Of a DNA stretch of 64,000 nucleotides, positions 846 through 57,871 are shown in pieces. A program made the translations under genes and the position numbers. The notes below the pieces were generated by a model. That model searched no databases and was not told the DNA's origin. It saw nothing but the letters and a program-made list of their open reading frames with translations. Source of the DNA: Spirochaetota bacterium (GTDB lineage Bacteria > Spirochaetota > UBA4802 > UBA5550); contig DAIUKG010000006.1 of the NCBI GenBank assembly GCA_036848375.1, forward strand, positions 44,941-108,940. The letters run 5' to 3'. Position 1 is the first letter of the stretch, and each line of letters begins with the position of its first letter.

Positions 846-1123
846 TTTAATTATCCTTAGCGAATTTAACGACTAAATGAGCTGACAACAGAAATAAAAA
901 AAATTTTAATTCCCATAACGAACAAATACCCCTAAATGATCCTTGACTTTTTGCTCATTAATTTCGATAATCTTACCAGTCATATGAGTCCTCCTTCTGA
1001 TTTAAAAAGTGTGGTTACTTAAATCGTCAGATCGAGGACTTTTTTATTATCTAAATGTGCGAAAGATATTTTCACTACCAGGGAGCGCAGTTGCTATGCT
1101 GAGCCAGGTGTCGTTTTTAATAT

Positions 1124-1243
1124 AAGGGAACCTCTATAAATTACATTTCGGATGTTCCCTTGTGGGCACAACCATTGGATAAATCAGGTTTTATCATTTT
1201 TCAATTAATGAAAAAACCTGATTTTTAGAGGTGCCCATAATTT
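1124..1243. repeat. structured ~120-bp repeat, copy 1 (family also at 4711-4828 inverted and 13115-13288)
   Basis: AAGGGAACCTCTATAAATTACATTTCGGATGTTCCCTTGTGGGCAC...AAATCAGGTTTT...AAAACCTGATTTTTAGAGGTGCCCATAAT. Nested inverted repeats: GGGAAC/GTTCCC, GGGCAC/GTGCCC, AAATCAGGTTTT/AAAACCTGATTT, and ACCTCTA/TAGAGGT between the two ends. Confidence 0.8.
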
Positions 1244-1648
1244 ATAGCCGTAGAAAATATAGATATTATTATTTTTCAAGTATTCAAATATTTTACCTGA
1301 TTCCAAGAAATCTAAATATTTTTCTGATTTAATTTTTAGCCATTCAATATCTTTATAATCTATATTACTTTGATCTCCAATATGCTCTATGAATGTTTCT
1401 TCATAAAATAAATTAGTGTTTTTATAGGATACTTTATTTTTATTATTATCATAGGAATAGAACTGACCAATTATTCTTGGTTTATCTTCATTAATTAATT
1501 TTATAGATAAAAACTCAACTTCAAAATCTACTTCATCTAATGAATCAAATAAATATTTCCATTTACTATTATTCATATAGCTATTTAGTTGTTTTTTCAT
1601 AATAAAATAATGAATATAAAAATGACGCTTAACTAAAATTAACCTCAT
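1205..1648 (-). CDS. hypothetical 147-aa protein, AT-rich; the last codons run into repeat copy 1
   Basis: Complete ORF in the six-frame track. ~27% GC and Asn/Lys/Tyr-rich. No recognisable domain. Confidence 0.45.
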   Translation of the reverse strand: MRLILVKRHFYIHYFIMKKQLNSYMNNSKWKYLFDSLDEVDFEVEFLSIKLINEDKPRIIGQFYSYDNNKNKVSYKNTNLFYEETFIEHIGDQSNIDYKDIEWLKIKSEKYLDFLESGKIFEYLKNNNIYIFYGYKLWAPLKIRFFH

Positions 1649-1649
1649 T

Positions 1650-2340
1650 TCATTTTATCACCACACACCCCATGAGGCACAACGCCAGCCCATCAATTAA
1701 CAGCGTTAGTTCTTCGCCAGCACAAACTGTAATCGACTCTATTGAATAGTCAAGGAAATAATGGGTCCCCCCTGTAGGGACCGGTCGCGACCGGTCCCTA
1801 CAGGGGGGACCCTCGACATCATATACCGGGCCCGCACTCTTCCCTCTCCCGATAGCGCGGTCATGGACGACCGTGCTGGGAAGCAACAGGATGTTGCACA
1901 TGCAGGCGCGTCCAGGATGGACAAAAAAGCGCCTGCCTAGTCTGTCAGGATGACAATACGAGCCCCGCACCATAGGTTCATGCCGCGGACGTGACGGAAG
2001 GTTCCGGTTACACTCTTTTCTGAATCCCGTCCGCCGTGAGGCGGACACCTGTCAGGCGTCTGTCTGAGCCGAAAGGAGCATAGCGACGTCGGCGAGTTTC
2101 GCCCGAAGCCCGTCGCGGCGTCTGAGCGACCGCCCTCTCTTTTCGGCCTTTTCTCTGGGCGATGCAGAGAAAAGGCCATCGTGTTCCCGGCCCCGGCAAC
2201 AACCCTCTCACGCCGGTAACGGCGTGCAACAAGCCGGAGGCTTATATTTTAGCTCGTTCCAAAAGCGGCAAACCCCCAACTCGTGTCACGAGTTAAAACA
2301 CCCCGGGCAGGCTGCCCGCATGATTTCCCACCCCTCTTTA
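1650..2340. other. GC-rich (~58%) non-coding block with many hairpins; candidate structured ncRNA or mobile-element remnant
   Basis: All six frames give Arg/Pro-rich nonsense ORFs. Perfect hairpins GTCCGCC-GTGA-GGCGGAC (2028-2045), GGCCTTTTCTCTG-N7-CAGAGAAAAGGCC (2145-2177), CACGCC-GGTAAC-GGCGTG and AACTCG-N5-CGAGTT. There is a sharp compositional jump against AT-rich flanks. Confidence 0.35.
1765..1810. repeat. 46-bp perfect palindrome GTCCCCCCTGTAGGGACCGGTC GC GACCGGTCCCTACAGGGGGGAC, followed by the conserved tail GGACCCTCGACATCAT
   Basis: Read directly from the sequence. The same C6-CTGCAG-G6 core recurs at 2939-2953 and 3636-3685. The tail recurs at 2952-2967. Confidence 0.9.
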
Positions 2341-2375
2341 TTAAACTTTAAGCGAGGAAGGCGAAAAGCAAAACT

Positions 2376-2780
2376 CTATATGAATACAGATGGTGATACC
2401 GAGAATTTTTTTGCTAATAATTTTATTTGTCTTATATTTAATTCTCTTTTGCCATGTAATATTTCAGATACAACACCCTGTGATCCTATTTCACGCAAAT
2501 CTGATTGTTTTAATCCATGTTCAGACATGAGTTCTTTTAAGATGGTCACAACGCCGGGCTGGTTAATTGTATATTTTTCCTCTTCATACTTTTCAATGAG
2601 CAAGCCAATGGTTTCCATGAGAAGAGCCAAAGGATGTTTATCATTATTGCCGACCTCATCGACGAGTTCATCTAATCTTTTACAAAGATTATTATAATCT
2701 TTTTTATTATGGGGCACGCTCAACAGTTCAGCTACTGAAGGCCACAATTTTTCAATGTTTTTTAATTCTGCACTTAACAT
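2376..2780 (-). CDS. higA: HigA-family antitoxin (C-terminal XRE-type helix-turn-helix)
   Basis: 134 aa. The C-terminus QSDLREIGSQGVVSEILHGKRELNIRQIKLLAKKFSVSPSVFI is a typical HTH_XRE. It lies 1 nt downstream of a higB-like reading frame, the HigBA gene order. Confidence 0.7.
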   Translation of the reverse strand: MLSAELKNIEKLWPSVAELLSVPHNKKDYNNLCKRLDELVDEVGNNDKHPLALLMETIGLLIEKYEEEKYTINQPGVVTILKELMSEHGLKQSDLREIGSQGVVSEILHGKRELNIRQIKLLAKKFSVSPSVFI

Positions 2781-2781
2781 T

Positions 2782-2938
2782 TTATTTTTTCCATTTGTTT
2801 TTATTATATTCAGTATGAGTCAAGACATGGCGAATGTATACTATTTTACGATTATAATGAATAGCCGCGATTAATCGATATTTATTACCTCCAATATTAA
2901 AAACGGTTAAATCATTAACAATATCAGCATATGGAAAT
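2782..2938 (-). pseudogene. higB: HigB (RelE/ParE-fold 'killer protein') toxin gene, missing its 5' end; only the C-terminal ~50 codons are recognisable
   Basis: The minus-strand translation ...YADIVNDLTVFNIGGNKYRLIAAIHYNRKIVYIRHVLTHTEYNKNKWKK* matches the HigB C-terminal motif (GGNKYRLI...Y[IV]R.[IL]GTHxEYDK). Upstream the frame runs into the palindromic element at 2939 with no start codon or toxin N-terminal domain. Confidence 0.6.
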
Positions 2939-3060
2939 ATCCCCCCTGCAGGGGGACCCTCGACATCATTTTTCGGCCTACACTCTTTCTCCCCCTTTAC
3001 GTAAAGGGGGCCGGGGGAATTTCTCCTCCACCTCCCCGGCGGCCCTGTGCGCCACTTTTA
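2939..3060. repeat. G/C-palindrome cluster inserted at the 5' end of higB: CCCCCCTGCAGGGGG + GGACCCTCGACATCAT tail, then CCCCCTTTACGTAAAGGGGG (2989-3008) and CCGGGG...CCCCGG
   Basis: The first ~55 nt (palindrome, ACCCTCGACATCAT, ~8 nt, CGGCCYRCACTCTTYC) are colinear with 1795-1850. This suggests a small palindrome-associated repeat or mobile sequence. Confidence 0.5.
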
Positions 3061-3162
3061 AAACTTTTTTTAATTATCCGGGAACCCCCTTCCTGTTCGC
3101 GGGTTAATTATATAAATTCCGGGAGATACGCCCGATTTCAGATAATAAAGGAAATAAATCCC

Positions 3163-3591
3163 ATGAAACACATGATATACCTGCTGTTCGCGCTGGTCCT
3201 TTTCGCGGTCGCCTGCACTGACGAGGAAAACGACGATTACCAGGTAAGGATCAAGACCTTCGGCTATCCGTGCCTTGGGTGGATCGACAGCGATGATGAA
3301 ACGATAACGTTCGCTGCAGACGATTTTGAGGGGGATGACGGCATCTATTACTACACGAAAAACCTCGACAGCCCCGACACGGTAAGCGTGATTGCCCAGG
3401 GATACTACAACAGCGAGTCAGAGTACACCGAAAGCATTTACGTGTCTATTTACGAGAACGACGAGAAGGTAGCGTCAGAAACCGATACCACGAGCATCAC
3501 CTATGACAACGGCGAGGTCGAATATGTGGAAAAGGCGTACGTTTCGCTTGATTACACCTTCGATGATGATGATGACGACGACGATGAGTGA
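3163..3591 (+). CDS. small acidic lipoprotein (signal peptide with AVAC lipobox; C-terminal poly-Asp tail)
   Basis: MKHMIYLLFALVLFAVAC|TDEEN... 142 aa. It ends ...FDDDDDDDDE. GGAAATAAATCCCATG provides a plausible RBS. Confidence 0.6.
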   Translation: MKHMIYLLFALVLFAVACTDEENDDYQVRIKTFGYPCLGWIDSDDETITFAADDFEGDDGIYYYTKNLDSPDTVSVIAQGYYNSESEYTESIYVSIYENDEKVASETDTTSITYDNGEVEYVEKAYVSLDYTFDDDDDDDDE

Positions 3592-3635
3592 AAGCAGTAA
3601 CACCACGGAATTGAGAGAACATGATGTTGGCAATA

Positions 3636-3695
3636 GAATCCCCCCTGCAGGGAACGGGCATGCCCGTTCCCTGCAGGGGGGATTCTATCTTTTTT
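3636..3695. terminator. 50-bp perfect palindrome (GAATCCCCCCTGCAGGGAACGGGC AT GCCCGTTCCCTGCAGGGGGGATTC) followed by a T-run; likely intrinsic terminator, possibly bidirectional
   Basis: A GC-rich stem is followed by TCTTTTTTACT, 45 nt downstream of the lipoprotein gene stop. Confidence 0.6.
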
Positions 3696-3774
3696 ACTAT
3701 TATTGAAACAGCAGGCGCAACCCGGCCTGTATGAGCCAGGCGTTGTCGAGCGAATATTTCACCCGGTACTCATC

Positions 3775-4644
3775 CTAGTATCTTTTAAACTCGCTTCTGC
3801 CGTAAATATATGACGCGCCGAACTGGTACCCGGCAAAAGCCACGAGGGCGATATTGCGGTGGATGTATGTGGAGATACGTTCGCCCGCGCGATGGTATTC
3901 ATAAAAGAGATTTTCTTTTTTGTTTTCCCTGCGGTTGAGCATGTACACGTCCTTGTCATAAGAATATTCCGTGCCCAGGATCAAAAACGAAAGCGGCCTG
4001 AACTCAAACGCGGTAAAGATTGACGCGACCGGAATATATCTGAACCGAAGGGTAAAATAGTCTTTCGGTTTCCAGACAAGCCGGGTTAACAACCCGAGGG
4101 TGAAGTCAACTTCATCATTTACAAACTTGTAACTGATCATGGGGATAGGTATGGGCAGGCCGATGTTGCGGGTTATCAGCGAAGAGTAGTTGACCCCGAA
4201 GCTGACCGAATGGGGCCCCTCCTGATAAATCTCATAGTACATCGTGGAAGTAATGGCAAAATCATCGAAACTTCTGAACGGCCTGTTGGTATTGTTGGAA
4301 AAACTGAAAAGAAAACTCACCTTGTCAAGATAAAAGCTGAAGGTCTCCTGTATCCGGTACAGCTCGACAGGCACAGGAATGTCCGTTTCGCGATTGGTGT
4401 AGGTAAAAAACAGATAGTTTTTGATTCTCGTGCCGCTGTTCACGTGAAACGTGTCAATGAACGAGGCGTCACAGGCATTGACATCCTCATCAGGGCCTTC
4501 ACTCTTGTGATACAGAAACGTGAGAATGTGGTCCGGCTGTTTTTCTTTTGGGGGGATGTTTTTGTTCTCGTCATCTGCCGTAACCCTGTGGGGAAAGAAA
4601 ATTATGCAGATGATCAGGGCTGTTGTGTAAAATATATGCTTCAT
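3775..4644 (-). CDS. hypothetical secreted protein, possibly an outer-membrane beta-barrel
   Basis: 289 aa from MKHIFYTTALIICIIFFPHRVTA (signal peptide). Alternating hydrophobic pattern with many aromatic residues. It ends ...GRSEFKRY. No family recognised. Confidence 0.5.
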   Translation of the reverse strand: MKHIFYTTALIICIIFFPHRVTADDENKNIPPKEKQPDHILTFLYHKSEGPDEDVNACDASFIDTFHVNSGTRIKNYLFFTYTNRETDIPVPVELYRIQETFSFYLDKVSFLFSFSNNTNRPFRSFDDFAITSTMYYEIYQEGPHSVSFGVNYSSLITRNIGLPIPIPMISYKFVNDEVDFTLGLLTRLVWKPKDYFTLRFRYIPVASIFTAFEFRPLSFLILGTEYSYDKDVYMLNRRENKKENLFYEYHRAGERISTYIHRNIALVAFAGYQFGASYIYGRSEFKRY

Positions 4645-4710
4645 TGACAAGCTCACCTCTCCACTGTCTCACGACTATTGTTACAAGACCCGGGAAGGGT
4701 CAAGATAATT

Positions 4711-4828
4711 TTAAGGGCACCTCTAAAAATCAGGTTTTTTCATTAATTGAAAAATGATAAAACCTGATTTATCCAATGGTTGTGCCCACAAGGGAACATC
4801 CGAAATGTAATTTATAGAGGTTCCCTTA
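4711..4828. repeat. structured repeat copy 2, reverse complement of copy 1
   Basis: AAGGGCACCTCTAAAAATCAGGTTTTTTCATTAATTGAAAAATGATAAAACCTGATTTATCCAATGGTTGTGCCCACAAGGGAACATCCGAAATGTAATTTATAGAGGTTCCCTT is a near-perfect reverse complement of 1124-1243. Confidence 0.8.
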
Positions 4829-4983
4829 AAATTCTGCTTTCACGATTTTCCAAAAGTACCGAAACCAGAACTTCAATTGCCGGGATGCGTGATGACGACG
4901 ACACAAGCCGTGCAGCAGATCAATGCCACGGATGTGACGGACGATACACGTGCACACGAGAGATGTCATCCCCCCTTGCACAT

Positions 4984-13092: not shown

Positions 13093-13114
13093 AAAGCTCC
13101 TCCCGGATTAGAAT

Positions 13115-13288
13115 AAGGGAACCTCTCTAAATAACATTTTTGATGTTCCCTTGTGGGTATCCCGATTCCTTATAGCTATTTAATGAATCGGGAGATAAAT
13201 CAGGTTTTATACCCCTACTAACTCCCCCTATCAGGGGGAGAATAAAAGAGGGGGTTAAAAACCTAATTTTTAGAGGTACCCATAATAA
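13115..13288. repeat. structured repeat copy 3, same orientation as copy 1, expanded by two extra stem-loops
   Basis: It shares AAGGGAACCTCTCTAAATAACATTTTTGATGTTCCCTTGTGGGTA...ATAAATCAGGTTTTAT...AAAACCTAATTTTTAGAGGTACCCATAAT. Inserted hairpins are TCCCGATTC...GAATCGGGA and CTCCCCC-CTATCA-GGGGGAG. The GGGCAC/GTGCCC stem of copy 1 is replaced by GGGTA/TACCC, a compensatory change. Confidence 0.75.
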
Positions 13289-13999: not shown

Positions 14000-14941
14000 A
14001 TGTACCCGAACAACCATACCAACAACCGGCCCCTGCATAAAATATTTAGCGCAAGGGCGCTTCTCACTCTTATTCAGGTAGCAGTGATCACCGCCAGGCA
14101 TATTCGGCGTGCTGAAATTTCAAATCAAAAGACGGAACACATGCCCGGGACAGAGGTCCTTCACCACTGGGCCCGGGAGCTGATCATGGCTGGAAGAATC
14201 AGAGTTAAAGCCAGGGGTAACCATCCTGAAAAAAACGCACTTTATATATGCAACCACCGCTCATATCTTGACATTGTAGCGATTGGCAGTGTTCTGCCAG
14301 TCACTTTTCTGGCAAAAGATGAAGTCGCCTCATGGCCTTTGTTCGGGCGCGGCTGCAGGGTTGCGGATGTCGTTTTTGTCAAACGGAACGACTCCGAAAG
14401 CAGAACACGGAGCCGTGACAGCATTAGCCTGGTACTGGACAGAAAAATGAGTATCGCGGTGTTTCCCGAAGGGACTTCTTTTGCCGGCCCGGGGATACTT
14501 CCTTTTAAAAAAGGCCCCTTCTCTATCGCTGCAGAAAATAATTTCACCGTTGTTCCGGTAGCAATCGATTATGCCGATCCGGATGACGCGTGGGTGGGAA
14601 GCGACACGTTCATCAGGCATTTCTTCCAGACTTTCGCGAAGAAAAAAATAACCATACTTGTCAGTTTCGGCCCGTCGATACGAAGCGATGACCCGGACGC
14701 CCTGCAGGCATACTGCCGGCACTGGATACATCACGCACTTATAGATCAAAAGAATTCAGACAAAAACTATAATTTACTGGAGGTTTATAATGAACCACCC
14801 TACGGGAAGTCAAAAAGCATCCGGCAACATCCCGCCCGGAAAAGCGAAAGAAAAGAACCCCTACCGGTACCAGGTATTATTCAGGCCGGGATTACACATG
14901 AGCGACGAAAAGATAGCGCTCCTGGTCGAAAAAATCCGTGA
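14000..14941 (+). CDS. plsC: lysophospholipid (1-acyl-glycerol-3-phosphate) acyltransferase, PlsC family
   Basis: H(X)4D motif NHRSYLD and FPEGTSF motif. The ends are uncertain; it may start at 14187, and its C-terminal extension overlaps the next ORF. Confidence 0.7.
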   Translation: MYPNNHTNNRPLHKIFSARALLTLIQVAVITARHIRRAEISNQKTEHMPGTEVLHHWARELIMAGRIRVKARGNHPEKNALYICNHRSYLDIVAIGSVLPVTFLAKDEVASWPLFGRGCRVADVVFVKRNDSESRTRSRDSISLVLDRKMSIAVFPEGTSFAGPGILPFKKGPFSIAAENNFTVVPVAIDYADPDDAWVGSDTFIRHFFQTFAKKKITILVSFGPSIRSDDPDALQAYCRHWIHHALIDQKNSDKNYNLLEVYNEPPYGKSKSIRQHPARKSERKEPLPVPGIIQAGITHERRKDSAPGRKNP

Positions 14942-35912: not shown

Positions 35913-37736
35913 TTAAACACCTAACTCCGTAAGAACTTTAATGTATAAATCAAAATATTCAGAATTTACAAATTTTCTTAATGTTTCTCTCGGAAGTTTT
36001 TCAAAGAGACCATCAAGATATTTCAGCAATCTTTTAACCTCAACCTGCCGTTTATCAGGAAATTCCCTGACGAACTGGTCAATATCATATTCATCTTCAA
36101 TAATAACAACTCTATCAGTGATATCATAAACTTCATCTATAACTTTAATTTTTTGTGCCCGCTCGCTCCCGGCTGTCTTGATAAAAAGATCCCTGATATC
36201 CTCGACATCTTCTTCAAAAATCAGGGCTGTTGAAGATGATATATCTCTTTCTATTGATTGTCTTTCTTCATCAAGAAGGCTTTCTGGCTCTGGCAGAATA
36301 TAGGTACAATCCTTACTTATTGAGGCTCGTTCTTCACCATCAGCATAATCAGTTTTAAAAAAATCAAATATTTCGTATAGATTTACATCCTTATATTCTT
36401 CATAAAAAAGCTTATCTTCGACCAGTCCAAGTTCATTTGTATTTAAACCAATTAATTCTATAGCGGCAGTTGAGTCTTTTTTGCTTTTAATTCCATAATA
36501 TTCATCAATATATTTAATATAATTTGAATAATCATCCTCTGTAAGCATTGAGTGAATAAATTCAATCTCTTCATCAACATATTTATACTCATCTTCAAAT
36601 TCAAGAAGGAGATCCTCAAAAACCGGAGCAATACCGGTTAAAACATGTGCAACAAGCTCTTTATCATCTTCGATTTCAGCTTCCTGAAGAACTTTTGTTT
36701 TCCCTTCAATAACCTCAACGATATCACTGGTAATCGCTTCAAGCTCATTATCTTCAAATATTTTCTCTGCAACAACATCATCCTTAACTACATAGCTGTC
36801 ATCTATAAAGCGGACATTGTCATATGATTTTTCCAGCTGTGTGAATTTTTCCGGAATTACTTCAACTTTTTTTTCATCAATAACGTCTTCTGGTTTTTCT
36901 TCATTTACTGTTTCTTTTTTATTTATAATTTTTGCAAATTCTTCATCATTGATTTGCTGCGTTTGTTTACTTTCTTTCTTTTCTTTTTTAGAACTGACTT
37001 TTAATTGTTCTTCTTGTAGCTTGTTTTCAAAAAGTTCATTTAAATCCAGTACTTCTTCGCTGGTGATTTCTTCAATTGTATCTTCCCTGGATGGAATAAG
37101 ATTTCGCGCGTCTACCGTTTTTTCCCTGGGTTTGACACTTTCATTCAAATTATCTACAGGAATAAAATCATGATCTCTATCTTCTTTTACTTTAACCGGT
37201 TTGTGCTTACGATCAAAAACGGCAGGCTTCTCGTCTAATCCTTTTCCAACATCCGGTTCACGGGCATCATCATTTACAGGAATTAAATCAAAATCTTCAA
37301 TCCCCTCAATTAAATCTTCTTCATTTAAAAAGAGTATTTCTTCATTTGCTATTTTTTCAGCTTCAAAAAGGTCAATTTTGCCGATTTCAGCAAAATCAAA
37401 ATTTTCAGGCAGCTTTGATTTCAGCAATGTTTTAATTTCACTGCTTGCCTGTTCCAGATTTTCAGAATCGCTCATATTTTGAAGTTCTTTTTCAGGCTTT
37501 ATTTCGTCTTTATCTTTATCTGAAGTAAGTTGAACAGTATAATCATCATCAATGTCTTTAGATAAATGATGTTTTTCCTGAATGCTGGTTATTTCCTCAA
37601 ATTTTCCATCCTGCATGTCATTTTGAAAATCTGGGGTACCAGTACCATGATCAATCCCCTTTGTATCGGCGATTTTTTCCGGGATGTCAGCAATTTCCTC
37701 AAACTGTTGTTCTTTAATTTCTTCCATTATAATCAA
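35913..37736 (-). CDS. 607-aa extremely acidic, low-complexity hypothetical protein
   Basis: Long ORF with Glu/Asp/Lys-rich repeats. No recognisable domain. Co-oriented with and overlapping the next gene. Confidence 0.5.
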   Translation of the reverse strand: MIIMEEIKEQQFEEIADIPEKIADTKGIDHGTGTPDFQNDMQDGKFEEITSIQEKHHLSKDIDDDYTVQLTSDKDKDEIKPEKELQNMSDSENLEQASSEIKTLLKSKLPENFDFAEIGKIDLFEAEKIANEEILFLNEEDLIEGIEDFDLIPVNDDAREPDVGKGLDEKPAVFDRKHKPVKVKEDRDHDFIPVDNLNESVKPREKTVDARNLIPSREDTIEEITSEEVLDLNELFENKLQEEQLKVSSKKEKKESKQTQQINDEEFAKIINKKETVNEEKPEDVIDEKKVEVIPEKFTQLEKSYDNVRFIDDSYVVKDDVVAEKIFEDNELEAITSDIVEVIEGKTKVLQEAEIEDDKELVAHVLTGIAPVFEDLLLEFEDEYKYVDEEIEFIHSMLTEDDYSNYIKYIDEYYGIKSKKDSTAAIELIGLNTNELGLVEDKLFYEEYKDVNLYEIFDFFKTDYADGEERASISKDCTYILPEPESLLDEERQSIERDISSSTALIFEEDVEDIRDLFIKTAGSERAQKIKVIDEVYDITDRVVIIEDEYDIDQFVREFPDKRQVEVKRLLKYLDGLFEKLPRETLRKFVNSEYFDLYIKVLTELGV

Positions 37737-37901
37737 TGTTCTATTACATTACTAATATATATCAATAATAAATCATAAGTATTATATTTTGAGGTTTTGT
37801 TCCATCGATCAATGCATAACTATAATATCAATTAATTATCGGTATTAATCAATTTTAATAATAATTAAAAATACCCGTACCACGAGATGATAATGATCAA
37901 T

Positions 37902-37936
37902 AAAAAAAGGGATGCATATATACTGCATCCCTTTTT
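37902..37936. terminator. intrinsic terminator of the atp operon (GGGATGCA-N7-TGCATCCC flanked by A-run/T-run; works on both strands)
   Basis: Perfect 8-bp stem at 37909-37931 with a 7-nt run on each side, 20 nt downstream of the atpC stop. Confidence 0.6.
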
Positions 37937-37955
37937 GTTTTACTTGTGTAATTAA

Positions 37956-38363
37956 CTATCTGTTTGCGACTTTAAGTCTTACTTTTAATTTCTTTTCTTC
38001 AAGTTGAATAAGAAATTTTTCGTTTGAAAAAGGCTTTGTTTCCTTTTCTTTCAAAACTTCCAGTTCTTTTAATTTCTTCTCTATATCTGCAGAATCCAAT
38101 TCACTCTTTCTATAGGCGTTCTCAGCAATAACGATCATTCGATTTTTGCATATTTCAACAATTCCGCCCTCAATTACAATATATTCTGTTCTATTTTCAT
38201 CTCGCAGTCTTAGTTCTCCGATTCCAAGCTCAGAAACCAGGGGAGCATGGTTATATAGAAATCCCATTTCACCATTATGAGCCTGAACAACCGCAAATCC
38301 AACAGATCCTTCATAAAGGGTTTTTTCAGGTGTCAATATGCTGCAGTCAATCTTTCTAATCAT
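37956..38363 (-). CDS. atpC: F0F1 ATP synthase subunit epsilon
   Basis: 135 aa. It follows atpD at a 2-nt gap in the canonical operon position. Confidence 0.85.
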   Translation of the reverse strand: MIRKIDCSILTPEKTLYEGSVGFAVVQAHNGEMGFLYNHAPLVSELGIGELRLRDENRTEYIVIEGGIVEICKNRMIVIAENAYRKSELDSADIEKKLKELEVLKEKETKPFSNEKFLIQLEEKKLKVRLKVANR

Positions 38364-38365
38364 TG

Positions 38366-39799
<1,434 letters not shown>

Positions 39800-39832
39800 T
39801 TATGAATAATCTCATATGTCTTTTTGTCGATA

Positions 39833-40717
39833 TCAACCCAGAGCAGCAGCACCACCAACGATCTCAGCGATTTCGTTAGTGATCTTCGCCTGTCGCGCTC
39901 TGTTATAACTGATCGTAAGTTCTTTTATCATTTCATCAGATGCATCAGTTGCGTTCTTCATAGCGACGCGCCTGGCAAACTGCTCAGAAAATGCTGATTC
40001 CAAAAAGCAGGAAAATATTTTTACCTTTAAATAAAGAGGTATTAAATATGAAAAGACTCTTCCTACATTCGGTTCATAAATATACTCAGTTACTTCGGTT
40101 TCTTTCACCGGATCTTTCCCAAAATAGGTATCGGCTGAAATTGGAAGTAATCGAATTATCTCAGGTTGTTGAGATGATGAACTGACCACTTTTGTATACG
40201 ATATATATACTTCATGTACTTCACCACTCAAAAAAAGTTCTTCCAACTCGTTACTGATTTTTGCTGTATCTTCTGAACTTAACTTGTCTTCAGGATTTGG
40301 CATTGATTTGTAAAAAGGAAGTTTTATAAACTTAAAGTAGTTTATTCCCTTTTTACCAACAACATAGTTTAATACTTCTTTACCTTCATCAACAAACTTA
40401 TCCCGAAAATTTACCGTATTATCAATAACGTTCGAGTTGAAACTGCCGCAAAGTCCCCGATTACCGGTTATTGAAAGTATCAGAATCCTTGAAGGATCAG
40501 CTACCTCCCGAAAAAGAGGATGTTGCAAAGCGGTAACACCAGTGTTCATGAGATTAGCAATGATCTCGTTGATCTTCAAATTTGCAGGCATCGACATTTC
40601 AAGTCTCTGCTGCATTTTTTTCATCTTTGAAGTAGAAACCATCTCCATCGTGCTGGTTATTTTTCTGGTGTTCTTGATTGAACTTATTCTGTTTTTAATG
40701 TCTCTTTGATTAGCCAC
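39833..40717 (-). CDS. atpG: F0F1 ATP synthase subunit gamma
   Basis: 294 aa. MANQRDIKNRISSIKNTRKITSTMEMVSTSK is a typical gamma N-terminus. Confidence 0.9.
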   Translation of the reverse strand: MANQRDIKNRISSIKNTRKITSTMEMVSTSKMKKMQQRLEMSMPANLKINEIIANLMNTGVTALQHPLFREVADPSRILILSITGNRGLCGSFNSNVIDNTVNFRDKFVDEGKEVLNYVVGKKGINYFKFIKLPFYKSMPNPEDKLSSEDTAKISNELEELFLSGEVHEVYISYTKVVSSSSQQPEIIRLLPISADTYFGKDPVKETEVTEYIYEPNVGRVFSYLIPLYLKVKIFSCFLESAFSEQFARRVAMKNATDASDEMIKELTISYNRARQAKITNEIAEIVGGAAALG

Positions 40718-40738
40718 GACATTTTCCTTTTAACCGTA

Positions 40739-42812
<2,074 letters not shown>

Positions 42813-42858
42813 TTTCTTTAACCCTTATCTTATAATTATAGTTGAAGGACAGTTCAGA

Positions 42859-43368
42859 TTACTGAACTGTCCTCATTTTATTAAGAGCCTCTTGAACGAG
42901 GGCCTTTTGGTCATCAGGATTAATGTTTTTGCTAATAATTTTCGATGCAATTTCTGTAGACAGAAGAACTACTTCATTCTTAATTTCCGCAAGTGCGTTT
43001 TCTTTTGCCAGATCAACTTCTTTTCGAGCTCTTTCCACTACCATTGAAGCTTCTTTGTTAGCTTTTTCAACTATTTCGTTCTTTATCTTTTCTGCTTCTT
43101 CTCTGCCTTTCGAAATTATCTCAGCAGCATCATCCTTGGCTTTCGCCATTTCCTGTCTGTGGGCATTGAGCACCTTTTCAGCCTCTTCACGGGCCTTTTC
43201 GGCGTTCTCAATATCGCCACGAACCTTTTCTGCCCTTGCATCAAGTGCATCAACTATAGGTCTCCAGGCCGTTTTCCAGAGGAGCAACACCAAGACAGCA
43301 AATGTAATGATAGTCCAGAGGAGTAGTCCTGGATCAACCTTGAGCAAACCTTCTTTTATTATAGCCAT
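42859..43368 (-). CDS. atpF: F0F1 ATP synthase subunit b
   Basis: 169 aa. N-terminal TM helix plus a long charged coiled coil. Confidence 0.8.
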   Translation of the reverse strand: MAIIKEGLLKVDPGLLLWTIITFAVLVLLLWKTAWRPIVDALDARAEKVRGDIENAEKAREEAEKVLNAHRQEMAKAKDDAAEIISKGREEAEKIKNEIVEKANKEASMVVERARKEVDLAKENALAEIKNEVVLLSTEIASKIISKNINPDDQKALVQEALNKMRTVQ

Positions 43369-43394
43369 AGCTAACCTTTAATAAACCTTTAAAA

Positions 43395-43682
43395 TTAGTG
43401 TGCTGCTTCTTCAGCTGCAGGAGCTACCGCAGCGCCCTGAGGAACAGCTTTCGGCGTTTGTGTTGCAAGCATGAAAGTAATAACAAGCGCAAAAAACGTG
43501 AAACCTTCGATCAGAGCTGCAGCAATAATCATAGCAGTTCTCAGGTCACCGCTCAGTTCCGGCTGACGAGCCATACCTTCAAGAGCACCGGCTGCCAATC
43601 TACCGATACCAAGAGCTGCTCCAAGAACAACCAGACCAGCACCAAAACCTGCTCCCAGATACGAAAGACCTAAATATTCCAT
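43395..43682 (-). CDS. atpE: F0F1 ATP synthase subunit c
   Basis: 95 aa. Two TM helices, with the conserved carboxylate in ...IAAALIEGF... Confidence 0.9.
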   Translation of the reverse strand: MEYLGLSYLGAGFGAGLVVLGAALGIGRLAAGALEGMARQPELSGDLRTAMIIAAALIEGFTFFALVITFMLATQTPKAVPQGAAVAPAAEEAAH

Positions 43683-43842
43683 TGAATCCTCCTAAAGTTT
43701 TTGTAATGTTCTTTAATATCAATTTACATACTAAGAATAATTTTTAAAGAACATTTTTTAATATTGTTTTTTATTTTTGAGCACCTTTAAATAAAACTTA
43801 AAACAAATCCTCTTTATCATCCAATCAGACAAGCCCATTTTC

Positions 43843-44703
43843 TTAGTGAGCGTGCATGGACTGACCGACAAACATTGAAGAAAGAGTCGCGAAAATATAC
43901 GCCTGGATAAACGCCACCAGGAGTTCAAGAAGGTATATCATCAGTGAACCAACAACTGAACCTATACCAACCCAGGGGTTCTGAAACATCATTACAAGAT
44001 ACAGGAATATTATAATAACAATGTGACCTGCTGTCATGTTTGCAAAAAGTCGGACGGTGAGAGCAAAAGGCTTAATGATCAATCCCATAATCTCTATCGG
44101 CCACAGGAGAAAATACATTACGAACGGGATCCCATGAGGAACTATACCTTTAAATATCCAGAGCGGCCCCTGCCTGATCATCCCTACAATTATCATTAAT
44201 GAAAGCGTGAACAGAGCAAGACCGAGTGTAACACCAAGGTTGCCTGTTGCAGTAGATGAACCCGGAATCAGACCTGCAAAGTTGCAGAAAAGGATATAAA
44301 AGAAAACCGTCGAAAAATAAGGCATCGCGGTTTTAATATGCTTGTGGTCGTAATAAGGTTCAACAATCTCGTCATGAACAAAACCGATCAACGCTTCCCA
44401 CATGTTGACCCATCGTGACTTGGAACCCATTTTAGCTTTCTTGAGTTTCCTTCCGAGAGGAACAAAAACAAGAACCATAAGTATAAAAGATACCCAGAGC
44501 ATAAAAACCCATTTGGTAATTCTCATGTCGAAAATACCGAAGAGTTTTTCATTTAAGACAGTTTCATTGATTTTGCCTATAAATCCGCCTGTTAATACAT
44601 GGTCACACATGTGGTGCATAACAACATCATACATCGTTTCTTTTTCACCACTTCCATGCCCCGAGGTAATGTAGGTATTAAAAAATTGCATTAAGTTGAT
44701 CAT
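43843..44703 (-). CDS. atpB: F0F1 ATP synthase subunit a
   Basis: 286 aa polytopic protein with the conserved Arg in ...LTVRLFANMTAGH... Confidence 0.9.
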   Translation of the reverse strand: MINLMQFFNTYITSGHGSGEKETMYDVVMHHMCDHVLTGGFIGKINETVLNEKLFGIFDMRITKWVFMLWVSFILMVLVFVPLGRKLKKAKMGSKSRWVNMWEALIGFVHDEIVEPYYDHKHIKTAMPYFSTVFFYILFCNFAGLIPGSSTATGNLGVTLGLALFTLSLMIIVGMIRQGPLWIFKGIVPHGIPFVMYFLLWPIEIMGLIIKPFALTVRLFANMTAGHIVIIIFLYLVMMFQNPWVGIGSVVGSLMIYLLELLVAFIQAYIFATLSSMFVGQSMHAH

Positions 44704-44845
44704 GCTTTATCCCCTGAAATTATCATTTATGTACAAGTTTTAAATTGATTTATATTCAAACTTCAATATCTTATTTTTTCTGTAGCCAATCTAAAATGAT
44801 ACCATTTATTAATCAAATAATTTTCAACTATGACTGAATTTTTTT

Positions 44846-45115
44846 TCACATCCATCGAACTCTTTTCTTTGGATTCTCTTTTTCCTCCTTTTCATGCCTG
44901 GTTTCAGTGTTTAACTGCTTGATAAGATGATAAAAACCCAGAACCATCCCTATAACAGCGCCAATGGTAACAAAAAGTGGCGATTTTCCATAATGCTCAT
45001 CGAGCCGGTACCCGCCATAGACAAAAATCAATACTGTCATTGCGAGTTCTAACCCAATTGTTATGTGCGTAAAAAGCACCTTTGATGTTTTCTGGTTGGC
45101 CACGTTTCTGTTCAA
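44846..45115 (-). CDS. atpI: AtpI/AtpZ-like small membrane protein preceding atpB
   Basis: 89 aa with two TM helices, at the first position of the operon. Confidence 0.5.
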   Translation of the reverse strand: MNRNVANQKTSKVLFTHITIGLELAMTVLIFVYGGYRLDEHYGKSPLFVTIGAVIGMVLGFYHLIKQLNTETRHEKEEKENPKKRVRWM

Positions 45116-53443: not shown

Positions 53444-53507
53444 GTGCTCTGACCCCAGGCAGGTTGGAAACCTGCCCCTCTAGACCACATTATTGTGCTC
53501 TGACCCC
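53444..53507. repeat. intergenic repeat module: 2x GTGCTCTGACCCC flanking the GNRA-loop hairpin GGCAGGTT-GGAA-AACCTGCC
   Basis: Direct reading of the sequence. The same module occurs at 57661-57800. Confidence 0.8.
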
Positions 53508-57660: not shown

Positions 57661-57800
57661 GGGGCTGGCTGGGAACCTGCCCCTGCAGGCCCCATATATT
57701 ATGCTCTGACCCCCTGAAACGGTGCTCTGACCCCCGATTATCCGCACGAATGATTTGCTCTGACCCCAGGGCAGGTTGAAAACCTGCCCCTACGGACCCC
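57661..57800. repeat. intergenic repeat module: 3x (G)TGCTCTGACCCC plus GNRA hairpin GGCAGGTT-GAAA-AACCTGCC and a related GGGAACCTGCCCCTGCAGG
   Basis: Direct reading. It lies in the divergent promoter region between the KS gene and the 57978 gene. Confidence 0.8.
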
Positions 57801-57827
57801 CATTATCTGCTGTTTTTTACCTCTTTC

Positions 57828-57871
57828 CCTTCGTTACACCTTCGTTACACCTTCGATACACCTTCGTTACT
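57828..57871. repeat. 11-bp tandem repeat x4 (CCTTCGTTACA, CCTTCGTTACA, CCTTCGATACA, CCTTCGTTACT)
   Basis: Direct reading. It ends ~105 bp upstream of the 57978 start codon. Confidence 0.85.

Follow-up and report, generated by a model that had tools for sequence, protein, structure and literature searches.

The 64,000-nucleotide window analysed here comes from the chromosome of an uncultured member of the Spirochaetota from anaerobic digesters, and near its left end it carries a sharply delimited, GC-rich block of non-coding DNA (positions 1650-2340) that is set between two minus-strand genes, one encoding a DUF6678 protein and the other a HigA-like antitoxin. This block is probably the non-coding body of an ~1.2-kb lineage-specific insertion that lies upstream of a lipoprotein gene and directly after a conserved palindrome, and it is rich in hairpins, six of which present GGA in their loops when the plus strand is read. 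The block and the genes around it are as follows.

1650-2340, no strand assigned: the whole GC-rich, non-coding, hairpin-dense block, defined by GC profile, coding tests and fold z-scores.
1205-1648, minus strand: DUF6678 gene with a GC content of 0.21, flanking the block on the left.
2376-2780, minus strand: higA-like antitoxin gene (HTH_3, by Pfam), flanking the block on the right.
2782-2937, minus strand: higB toxin remnant, matching positions 27-73 of the 74 of profile PF09907 (E = 4e-21).
3163-3591, plus strand: lipoprotein-like gene, used as the query that yielded relatives L088-L093.

Measured in 200-nt windows, GC content runs at 0.57-0.625 across 1701-2300, compared with 0.195-0.235 in the left flank (1201-1600) and 0.295-0.36 in the right flank (2401-2900); the contrast of about 58% with about 30% reported in an initial annotation of this DNA is thus confirmed, at ~58-62% for the block overall and 20-36% for its flanks. 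The remaining intergenic gaps of the window mostly lie at 0.23-0.40 GC, which makes a non-coding stretch of ~0.6 kb at ~0.6 GC unusual here. A hexamer coding model, trained on the window's own GC-rich genes and applied to 150-nt windows in six frames, gave the block scores of at most 0.06 in every window and frame, as against 0.26-0.84 for most tested genes (one gene, 14000-14941, scored only -0.03), and the period-3 power of the block was 0.88 as against 2.3-38 for genes. Open reading frames (ORFs) of 132 and 80 codons exist within it, and Pfam found no match either to the individual ORFs or to the block in all six frames. An exhaustive phmmer search with the longest, 132-codon ORF against 1.84 billion representatives returned the ORF itself, whose database entry is a singleton called on one contig, and no true relative; weak summed matches to giant repeat adhesins were judged to be noise. 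A six-frame chimeric query against 5.8 billion proteins found nothing, a weak negative since the ORF's own entry was also missed. The view that no frame codes plausibly therefore stands on hexamer, period-3, Pfam and phmmer evidence alike, and the confident protein homology that would have spoken against a structured RNA was looked for in every frame and not found.

The density of hairpins noted at the outset exceeds chance as well. The whole block folds far better than shuffled sequence (z = -6.5 on the plus strand and -6.2 on the minus strand), as does the body after removal of the big palindrome (1813-2340; z = -4.8 and -3.8), and hairpins formed solely by Watson-Crick pairs on stems of at least 5 bp number 11, compared with 3.1 +/- 1.7 in dinucleotide shuffles, none of 300 reaching 11. 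We conclude that the block is non-coding by every test and that its hairpin density is beyond chance. The body hairpins listed here come from hairpin enumeration unless stated otherwise.

1853-1878, plus strand: 10-bp stem, including two G.U pairs on this strand, with the loop AUGGAC.
1883-1897, plus strand: first CAGGAUG hairpin (gcaaC-AGGAU-Gttgc).
1902-1936, plus strand: 8-bp outer stem (GCAGGCGC/GCGCCTGC) around the second CAGGAUG hairpin (1910-1922), by folding and enumeration.
1943-1955, plus strand: third CAGGAUG hairpin (tgtC-AGGAU-Gaca).
1978-1994, plus strand: hairpin with the loop CCGCGGA, the fifth GGA loop.
2029-2046, plus strand: 7-bp stem with the GNRA loop GUGA.
2145-2177, no strand assigned: 13-bp perfect stem with a 7-nt loop.
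2209-2226, plus strand: 7-bp stem with the GNRA loop GUAA.
2231-2252, plus strand: GGA-triloop hairpin (AAGCC-GGA-GGCTT) followed by ATATTTTAGC, weakly terminator-like and a possible RNA 3' end.
2278-2294, no strand assigned: hairpin with the block's only single-nucleotide polymorphism (SNP), 2281 T>C, by assembly comparison.
2304-2318, minus strand: hairpin CGGGCAG-N-CTGCCCG followed by GGGTGTTTTA, resembling a terminator of higA.

About a dozen further hairpins accompany the 13-bp stem, which lies where the initial annotation had placed it, and the two GNRA stems, and the body hairpins are mutually unrelated in sequence. Of the GNRA caps originally named, GUGA holds and GAAA does not, as it has no closing stem of at least 5 bp; the second GNRA loop in the enumeration is GUAA. 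A phage contig (L094) has a hairpin identical to 2029-2046 among T-rich, terminator-like surroundings, a match due to chance rather than homology.

Three adjacent plus-strand hairpins (1883-1897, 1910-1922 and 1943-1955) have the identical loop AGGAU closed by a C-G pair, giving CAGGAUG, on stems that all differ (GCAAC/GUUGC, GUC/GAC and UGU/ACA). Three identical 5-nt loops on at least four Watson-Crick pairs arose in 0 of 2000 dinucleotide shuffles. GGA occupies the loop of six of the 19 plus-strand hairpins, compared with 0.69 +/- 0.87 in shuffles (0 of 2000 reach six), an excess of about nine-fold. Five of these loops form an array of ~140 nt (1853-1994) at a spacing of 22-42 nt and the sixth lies at 2231-2243, making this the densest GGA-loop cluster on either strand of the 64 kb, in which ~4% of hairpins have a GGA loop. 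A constant asymmetric loop on varying stems is expected from selection on a hairpin that is recognised as a single strand, and a protein that binds double-stranded DNA needs none of it. These three paralogous hairpins, with the same loop and differing stems, are the sole covariation-like evidence at the locus and are internal to the sequence.

CsrB is defined by a repeat, CAGGA(U/A/C)G, displayed in hairpin loops, and the determinant of CsrA binding is a GGA placed in such a loop (PMC7652899). Sponge RNAs of the Csr type have been described in Gammaproteobacteria, and in Bacillus subtilis and Campylobacter jejuni the protein FliW antagonises CsrA, the latter species being described as having no antagonising small RNAs (PMC7652899, PMC4894983). 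Like CsrB/CsrC and RsmX/Y/Z of the Gammaproteobacteria, the block is a non-coding chain of stem-loops with GGA loops, three of them exact CAGGAUG; its core array of ~140 nt is similar in length to RsmZ, and the candidate RNA as a whole is similar in length to CsrB. Unlike these RNAs, it combines long perfect stems with two GNRA hairpins, features absent from Csr RNAs; it also matches no Csr/Rsm sequence or structure in Rfam, and sits in a spirochaete in a lineage-specific insertion. Among spirochaetes, Leptospira is a genus in which CsrA has been studied (PMC8668096), and a chemotaxis receptor encoded in the window fits a motile organism.

Around the body, a palindrome and a short module that follows it occur in two copies, A and B, and a third related palindrome, C, lies beyond the lipoprotein gene. 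The features that define the insertion are these.

1656-1736, no strand assigned: left segment, moderately GC-rich and not common to relative L092 (alignment identity at random level left of 1737).
1737-1762, plus strand: left flank of palindrome A, conserved in L092 (blastn and alignment).
1763-1812, no strand assigned: palindrome A, perfect over 50 bp, its outer arms being CCCCCCTGTAGGG (repeat search).
1763-1812, minus strand: palindrome A followed by CCATTATTTCC, terminator-like (terminator scoring).
1804-1861, plus strand: module A, consisting of the 19-bp core GGGGGACCCTCGACATCAT (1804-1822) and the C/U-rich CACTCTTCCCTCTCCC (direct repeat).
1809-3018, no strand assigned: segment missing from the syntenic locus of L092, both ends lying at a GGGGG(G)A run.
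2938-3038, plus strand: unit B, upstream of the lipoprotein gene (repeat search, alignment and nhmmer), made up of the short palindrome B (2938-2956, CCCCCCTGCAGGGGG), module B (2951-2996), a further palindrome that is perfect over 20 bp (2991-3010) and, at 3011-3038, a hairpin whose loop is rich in C and U.
3633-3688, no strand assigned: palindrome C, a perfect 56-bp palindrome with arms 81% like those of palindrome A (repeat search).

The search with the lipoprotein gene recovered relatives L088-L093, whose proteins are 77-91% identical, and the informative comparison is with L092, which is ~82% identical in DNA. Window positions 1737-1809 align by blastn with L092 positions 230-302 at 81% identity: L092 keeps the 26-nt left flank and a degenerate, imperfect copy of palindrome A, and from this copy it runs straight into window position 3019 onward, with the C/U-rich hairpin, the promoter region and the lipoprotein gene. 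The ~1.2 kb that it lacks (1809-3018) hold module A, the body, higA, the higB remnant, palindrome B, module B and one further palindrome, and this segment is therefore lineage-specific. As the alignment suggests, the body is probably part of a lineage-specific gain, a loss from L092 by slippage between the G runs being less likely. L092 also lacks 3607-4950, which includes palindrome C, a 293-codon gene and a copy of a repeat like a miniature inverted-repeat transposable element (MITE); palindrome A is thus old, with turnover of the DNA on either side of it.

Palindrome and 45-nt module are duplicated such that copies A and B bracket the ~1.2-kb segment. The 19-bp core GGGGGACCCTCGACATCAT is identical at 1804-1822 and 2951-2969 and is followed in both places by ~28 nt that are related, diverged and C/U-rich; a module profile used with nhmmer found two copies only in the 64 kb (E = 9e-15 and 3e-11). 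higA is intact, and of higB the C-terminal two-thirds survive, the break falling exactly at palindrome B. An att-like arrangement was looked for, and two of its marks are present, namely direct repeats that share an identical core and a site that is empty in L092; the link to mobile DNA drawn in the initial annotation gains support from them, from the missing segment and from the truncated higBA pair. No recombinase gene was found inside or beside the segment in the window or in L001-L004. The block itself is present in every recovered contig of the same species and varies at one position only, the SNP 2281 T>C seen in four assemblies, and a population variant free of the block was not found, all contigs with higA or DUF6678 showing the identical arrangement. 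Similarity of the left flank (1653-1762) to a second higB remnant was sought and not found, and synteny could not be followed through MurB, whose nearest relative is only 63% identical and sits on a contig that stops before the locus.

The lipoprotein gene and its promoter occur in L088-L091 in another neighbourhood, with Peptidase_C69 on one side and a split GntR/FCD regulator on the other, and in one metagenome relative (a contig of P0125) a Phage_integrase fragment adjoins the homologous lipoprotein gene; the gene itself thus appears to move between sites. Palindrome C, which is located between the lipoprotein gene and the convergent 293-codon gene, is variable too, since 49 nt of it are missing from relative L093 (89% identical; 575-600). 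The 7 nt at its outer edge (ATAGAAT) repeat the right-hand flank, ATTCTAT, in inverted form, which suggests fold-back copying rather than insertion of a fixed element. In the 72 kb read, the motif CCCCCCTGYAGGG is restricted to three clustered sites within 2 kb, and a literature search for the palindrome sequence found nothing. The palindrome first described as perfect over 46 bp is indeed perfect, and is 50 bp long (1763-1812).

Searches for relatives of the block were negative throughout. No model of Rfam 15 (4227 models) matched the window at gathering thresholds, in keeping with the original failure to recognise RNase P, tmRNA, SRP, 6S or a group II intron, and at E<=10 over 1000-3800 only spurious microRNA and snoRNA matches fell on the palindromes. 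A 17-mer scan of 185,579 genomes gave 76 matches, the number expected by chance, none of which extended. The module pattern (23 specified bases) was found in metagenome contigs of the same species only, in a search of partial coverage that missed known JGI copies. Four scans of viral contigs returned nothing relevant to the body, and blastn against plasmid and phage collections found no similar DNA. The body was also considered as two or three diverged tandem copies of the module, for which local alignment was marginal (7 of 200 shuffles) and the profile found A and B only, and this possibility was rejected. The block is an orphan and should not be annotated under any existing RNA or transposon family.

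We tentatively favour, as a possible rather than a probable account, an accessory multi-hairpin RNA read from the plus strand, in which the GGA-loop array would titrate a CsrA-type protein. Such an RNA would be ~480 nt long and start at a promoter-like site just left of palindrome A, which on transcription could form a 23-bp hairpin that caps and protects the 5' end. The array at 1853-1994 and the sixth loop at 2231-2243 would be displayed for dimers of the CsrA/RsmA type, so that the RNA could draw a CsrA-type or other GGA-loop-reading protein off its mRNA targets, as CsrB and RsmZ do. Downstream hairpins, two of them GNRA-capped, might add stability, and the RNA may end near the weak terminator at 2231-2252. 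Three identical loops on differing stems speak for this account, and several features agree with the strand that it requires: a putative promoter (TCGACT, 18 nt, AATAAT; 1733-1762, score 9/12) faces the block from directly upstream, in the flank conserved in L092; both GNRA tetraloops form on the plus strand only; the 10-bp stem at 1853-1878 is continuous, through its G.U pairs, on that strand only; and the body folds slightly better there (z = -4.8 as against -3.8). On balance, the plus strand is modestly favoured over the minus strand.

A number of observations weigh against this account. Promoter and terminator matches are weak, the former at 9/12 and the latter a 5-bp stem with a T-run at 2231-2252. 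Only on the minus strand do G.U pairs lengthen more stems than expected (17 hairpins of at least 6 bp, compared with 8.7 +/- 3.0; 4 of 300 shuffles), and the SNP at 2281 keeps pairing on the minus strand only, where A-U becomes G.U, the plus strand being left with C.A. Nearly all stems are pure Watson-Crick and hence alike on both strands, and the big palindromes are perfect to their centres, which points to symmetry at the DNA level. With six GGA loops in ~390 nt the block is far sparser than CsrB, which has ~18 in the whole RNA, and the Rfam models of CsrB, CsrC, RsmX, RsmY and RsmZ gave no match even at E<=10 over 1000-3800. Neither csrA nor fliW was found in the ~72 kb read (tblastn for csrA over the window and L001-L009; Pfam on the window ORFs). 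Finally, no homologue of the body emerged from genome, metagenome, viral, plasmid, phage or protein searches, and the L092 locus lacks the whole body, which is accordingly no conserved core RNA.

Were the block such an RNA, titration of CsrA by RNA would not be confined to the Proteobacteria, sponges could be gained as small accessory insertions, and models of CsrA control in organisms where the protein FliW antagonises CsrA would change. The stronger claim, that this is the first RNA sponge for CsrA outside the Proteobacteria, CsrB-like, accessory and horizontally inserted in a spirochaete, we regard as a long shot.

Another account, doubtful but deserving serious attention, takes the block to be inert, the non-coding arm of an integrative or other mobile segment that underwent recombination at the 19-bp core beside the conserved palindrome and has since degraded. 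The event would have brought in higBA and duplicated palindrome and module, later deletions would have truncated higB and removed any recombinase gene, and the hairpins would be DNA palindromes with no present function beyond incidental termination. Several results above agree with it: the absence of 1809-3018 from L092 with ends at GGGGG(G)A runs, an identical core within diverged flanks in the manner of attL and attR, the truncation of higB precisely at palindrome B, the strand-symmetric stems and perfect palindromes, the insertion or deletion of palindrome C itself relative to L093, the integrase fragment beside the homologous lipoprotein gene in another relative and the failure of every search to find a homologue of the body. 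It leaves unexplained, however, the three AGGAU loops on differing stems and the roughly nine-fold excess of GGA loops, and neither an integrase or transposase (in the 64 kb or the gene calls of 7.6 kb leftward) nor a second copy of the body was found, while the block is intact in all recovered assemblies. If it is right, the palindrome family marks a site of gain or loss of DNA on both sides, upstream of a surface lipoprotein gene, and offers a clear case of palindrome-associated genome change in an uncultured lineage.

Two known kinds of mobile DNA resemble such a remnant in part. An att-flanked toxin-antitoxin islet would likewise show an identical core in diverged flanks, an empty site in a relative and higBA inside; here, however, no integrase is present, the segment spans no more than 1.2 kb, part of higB is missing, and the arm that does not code is rich in GC and hairpins rather than in AT. 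Elements of the IS200/IS605 family and the guide RNAs of TnpB/IscB share with the locus a hairpin near one end and the lack of the usual target-site duplication, and units A and B start after a ...CAGGGGG run. The initial annotation had proposed the end of an IS200/IS605-like element as one of two alternatives, and this specific attribution fails: no tnpA, tnpB or iscB lies in the 64 kb or in the gene calls leftward, the right end lacks a counterpart to the hairpin on the left, the body was found only once in 72 kb and Rfam reports no HEARO match. Of these two alternatives there survive the look of a structured RNA, shorn of its proposed kinship with HEARO, GOLLD or ROOL, and inserted DNA, shorn of the tie to IS200/IS605. 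The locus was also compared with integron cassettes, and the palindromes at 1763-1812, 2938-2956 and 3633-3688 are perfect, with none of the RYYYAAC...GTTRRRY core sites of attC, in a window that encodes no integrase.

Transcription of the opposite strand is unlikely to account for the block. A minus-strand RNA could be a long 3' extension of the higA transcript, a leader of DUF6678 or an independent RNA of ~0.5 kb ending at palindrome A, and its CAUCCUG or UCC loops could pair with the Shine-Dalgarno sequence (AGGA) of target mRNAs. RNAIII of Staphylococcus aureus is a multi-hairpin regulator whose C-rich loops pair with the Shine-Dalgarno regions of its target mRNAs. Read on the minus strand, the block would resemble it as an RNA of ~0.5 kb with 14-20 hairpins and several UCC-containing loops; it bears no sequence relation to RNAIII and encodes no peptide. 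The excess of G.U-lengthened stems, the pairing retained at position 2281, the scoring of palindrome A with CCATTATTTCC as a minus-strand terminator and the orientation of both higA and DUF6678 all speak for this strand. Conversely, the GNRA loops and the exact CsrB-type motif occur on the plus strand only, no minus-strand promoter-like site was found inside the block, and the terminator-like hairpin at 2304-2318 separates higA from the body.

Still less probable is a cis element acting as DNA, whether a hot spot for recombination or attachment, a single-strand origin or an array of hairpins bound by a protein in single-stranded DNA. A palindrome family whose three members in 72 kb all fall within 2 kb, lineage-specific DNA on both sides of palindrome A and stems alike on both strands would suit it, but genes for replication, transfer or recombinases are not found nearby, the body hairpins all differ and so provide no repeated binding site, and the constant part is an asymmetric loop, implying single-strand recognition of a kind more usual for RNA. 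The palindromes recall REP, REPIN and BIME elements in being GC-rich and perfect or near-perfect within an intergenic gap, in that A and C each consist of two inverted copies of a 21-25-nt unit and in the absence of C from a relative. They differ in that only three are related and these share a single 2-kb stretch, the other 70 kb having none, that the body hairpins are unrelated to one another and that no RAYT gene was seen; with CCCCCCTGYAGGG at three clustered sites rather than many dispersed copies, we do not assign them to these elements. A decayed protein gene or a described large RNA (HEARO/omega RNA, GOLLD, ROOL, OLE or a group II intron) is in effect already refuted within the sensitivity of the searches, for although the size of 0.5-0.7 kb and the GC content are like those of a native gene or a large ornate RNA, and ORFs of 132 and 80 codons exist, the hexamer score is at most 0.06, the period-3 power 0.88, no Pfam match or protein relative was found and no covariance model of Rfam 15, including those for group I introns, matches, with HEARO, GOLLD and ROOL silent even at E<=10.

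Unit B has an appearance of its own. The region 2938-3075 resembles a small RNA gene or leader, with its palindrome, module, 20-bp palindrome, CUCCUCCACCUCC-loop hairpin and a T-rich run. Its sole hint in Rfam was to Pxr (E = 0.23), which is not significant, and a plus-strand terminator conserved across relatives, which had been considered for it, was unsupported on comparison. Contigs from several independent assemblies (L004 and L006-L009) end near 1829-1831, 2945, 2962 and 3661, beside or inside palindromes, and such ends could reflect either a loss of coverage at GC-rich hairpins or a difference between cells of the population.

The rest of the window is ordinary chromosome, encoding CysS, SpoU, a PIN toxin, an ATP synthase operon, RecA, LepA, the chemotaxis receptor and other housekeeping proteins; MurB homologues place the host among uncultured Spirochaetota, the closest MurB among 5.8 billion proteins sharing only 63% identity with its own. 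The scanned ORFs (those of at least ~120 codons and the neighbours of the block) included no transposase, integrase, TnpB/IscB, reverse transcriptase, CsrA or FliW. Core-gene GC is unusually uneven across this genome, spanning 0.33-0.61, and low GC alone is therefore no mark of foreign DNA here. The F-type ATP synthase operon and its neighbours (35913-45115) lie at 0.33-0.46 GC, and RecA, LeuA and KAS at 0.56-0.61.

Other repeats occur in the window. The MITE-like repeat, with ends AAGGGAACCTCTATAAAT ... ATTTTTAGAGGTGCCCATAA, is found at 1117-1240, 4711-4828 (inverted) and 13108-13286; the first two copies are 99% identical over 118 nt, inverted and 3470 nt apart, and enclose the whole studied locus. 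The third differs in its middle, and L092 lacks the copy at 4711-4828. At 53453-53499, 57765-57811 and 57828-57870 lie a further hairpin repeat, CCCAGGCAGGTTGGAAACCTGCCCC, and, in three copies, a tandem repeat of 11 nt, CCTTCGTTACA; a similar run, CCTTCGATACACCTTCAGTACACC, is found downstream of the lipoprotein gene in L092 (~915-950). At the extreme left of the window, 3-845 on the minus strand encodes the N-terminal part of a 487-residue membrane-anchored protein with a dockerin type I domain (E = 3e-5), a domain not expected in a spirochaete.

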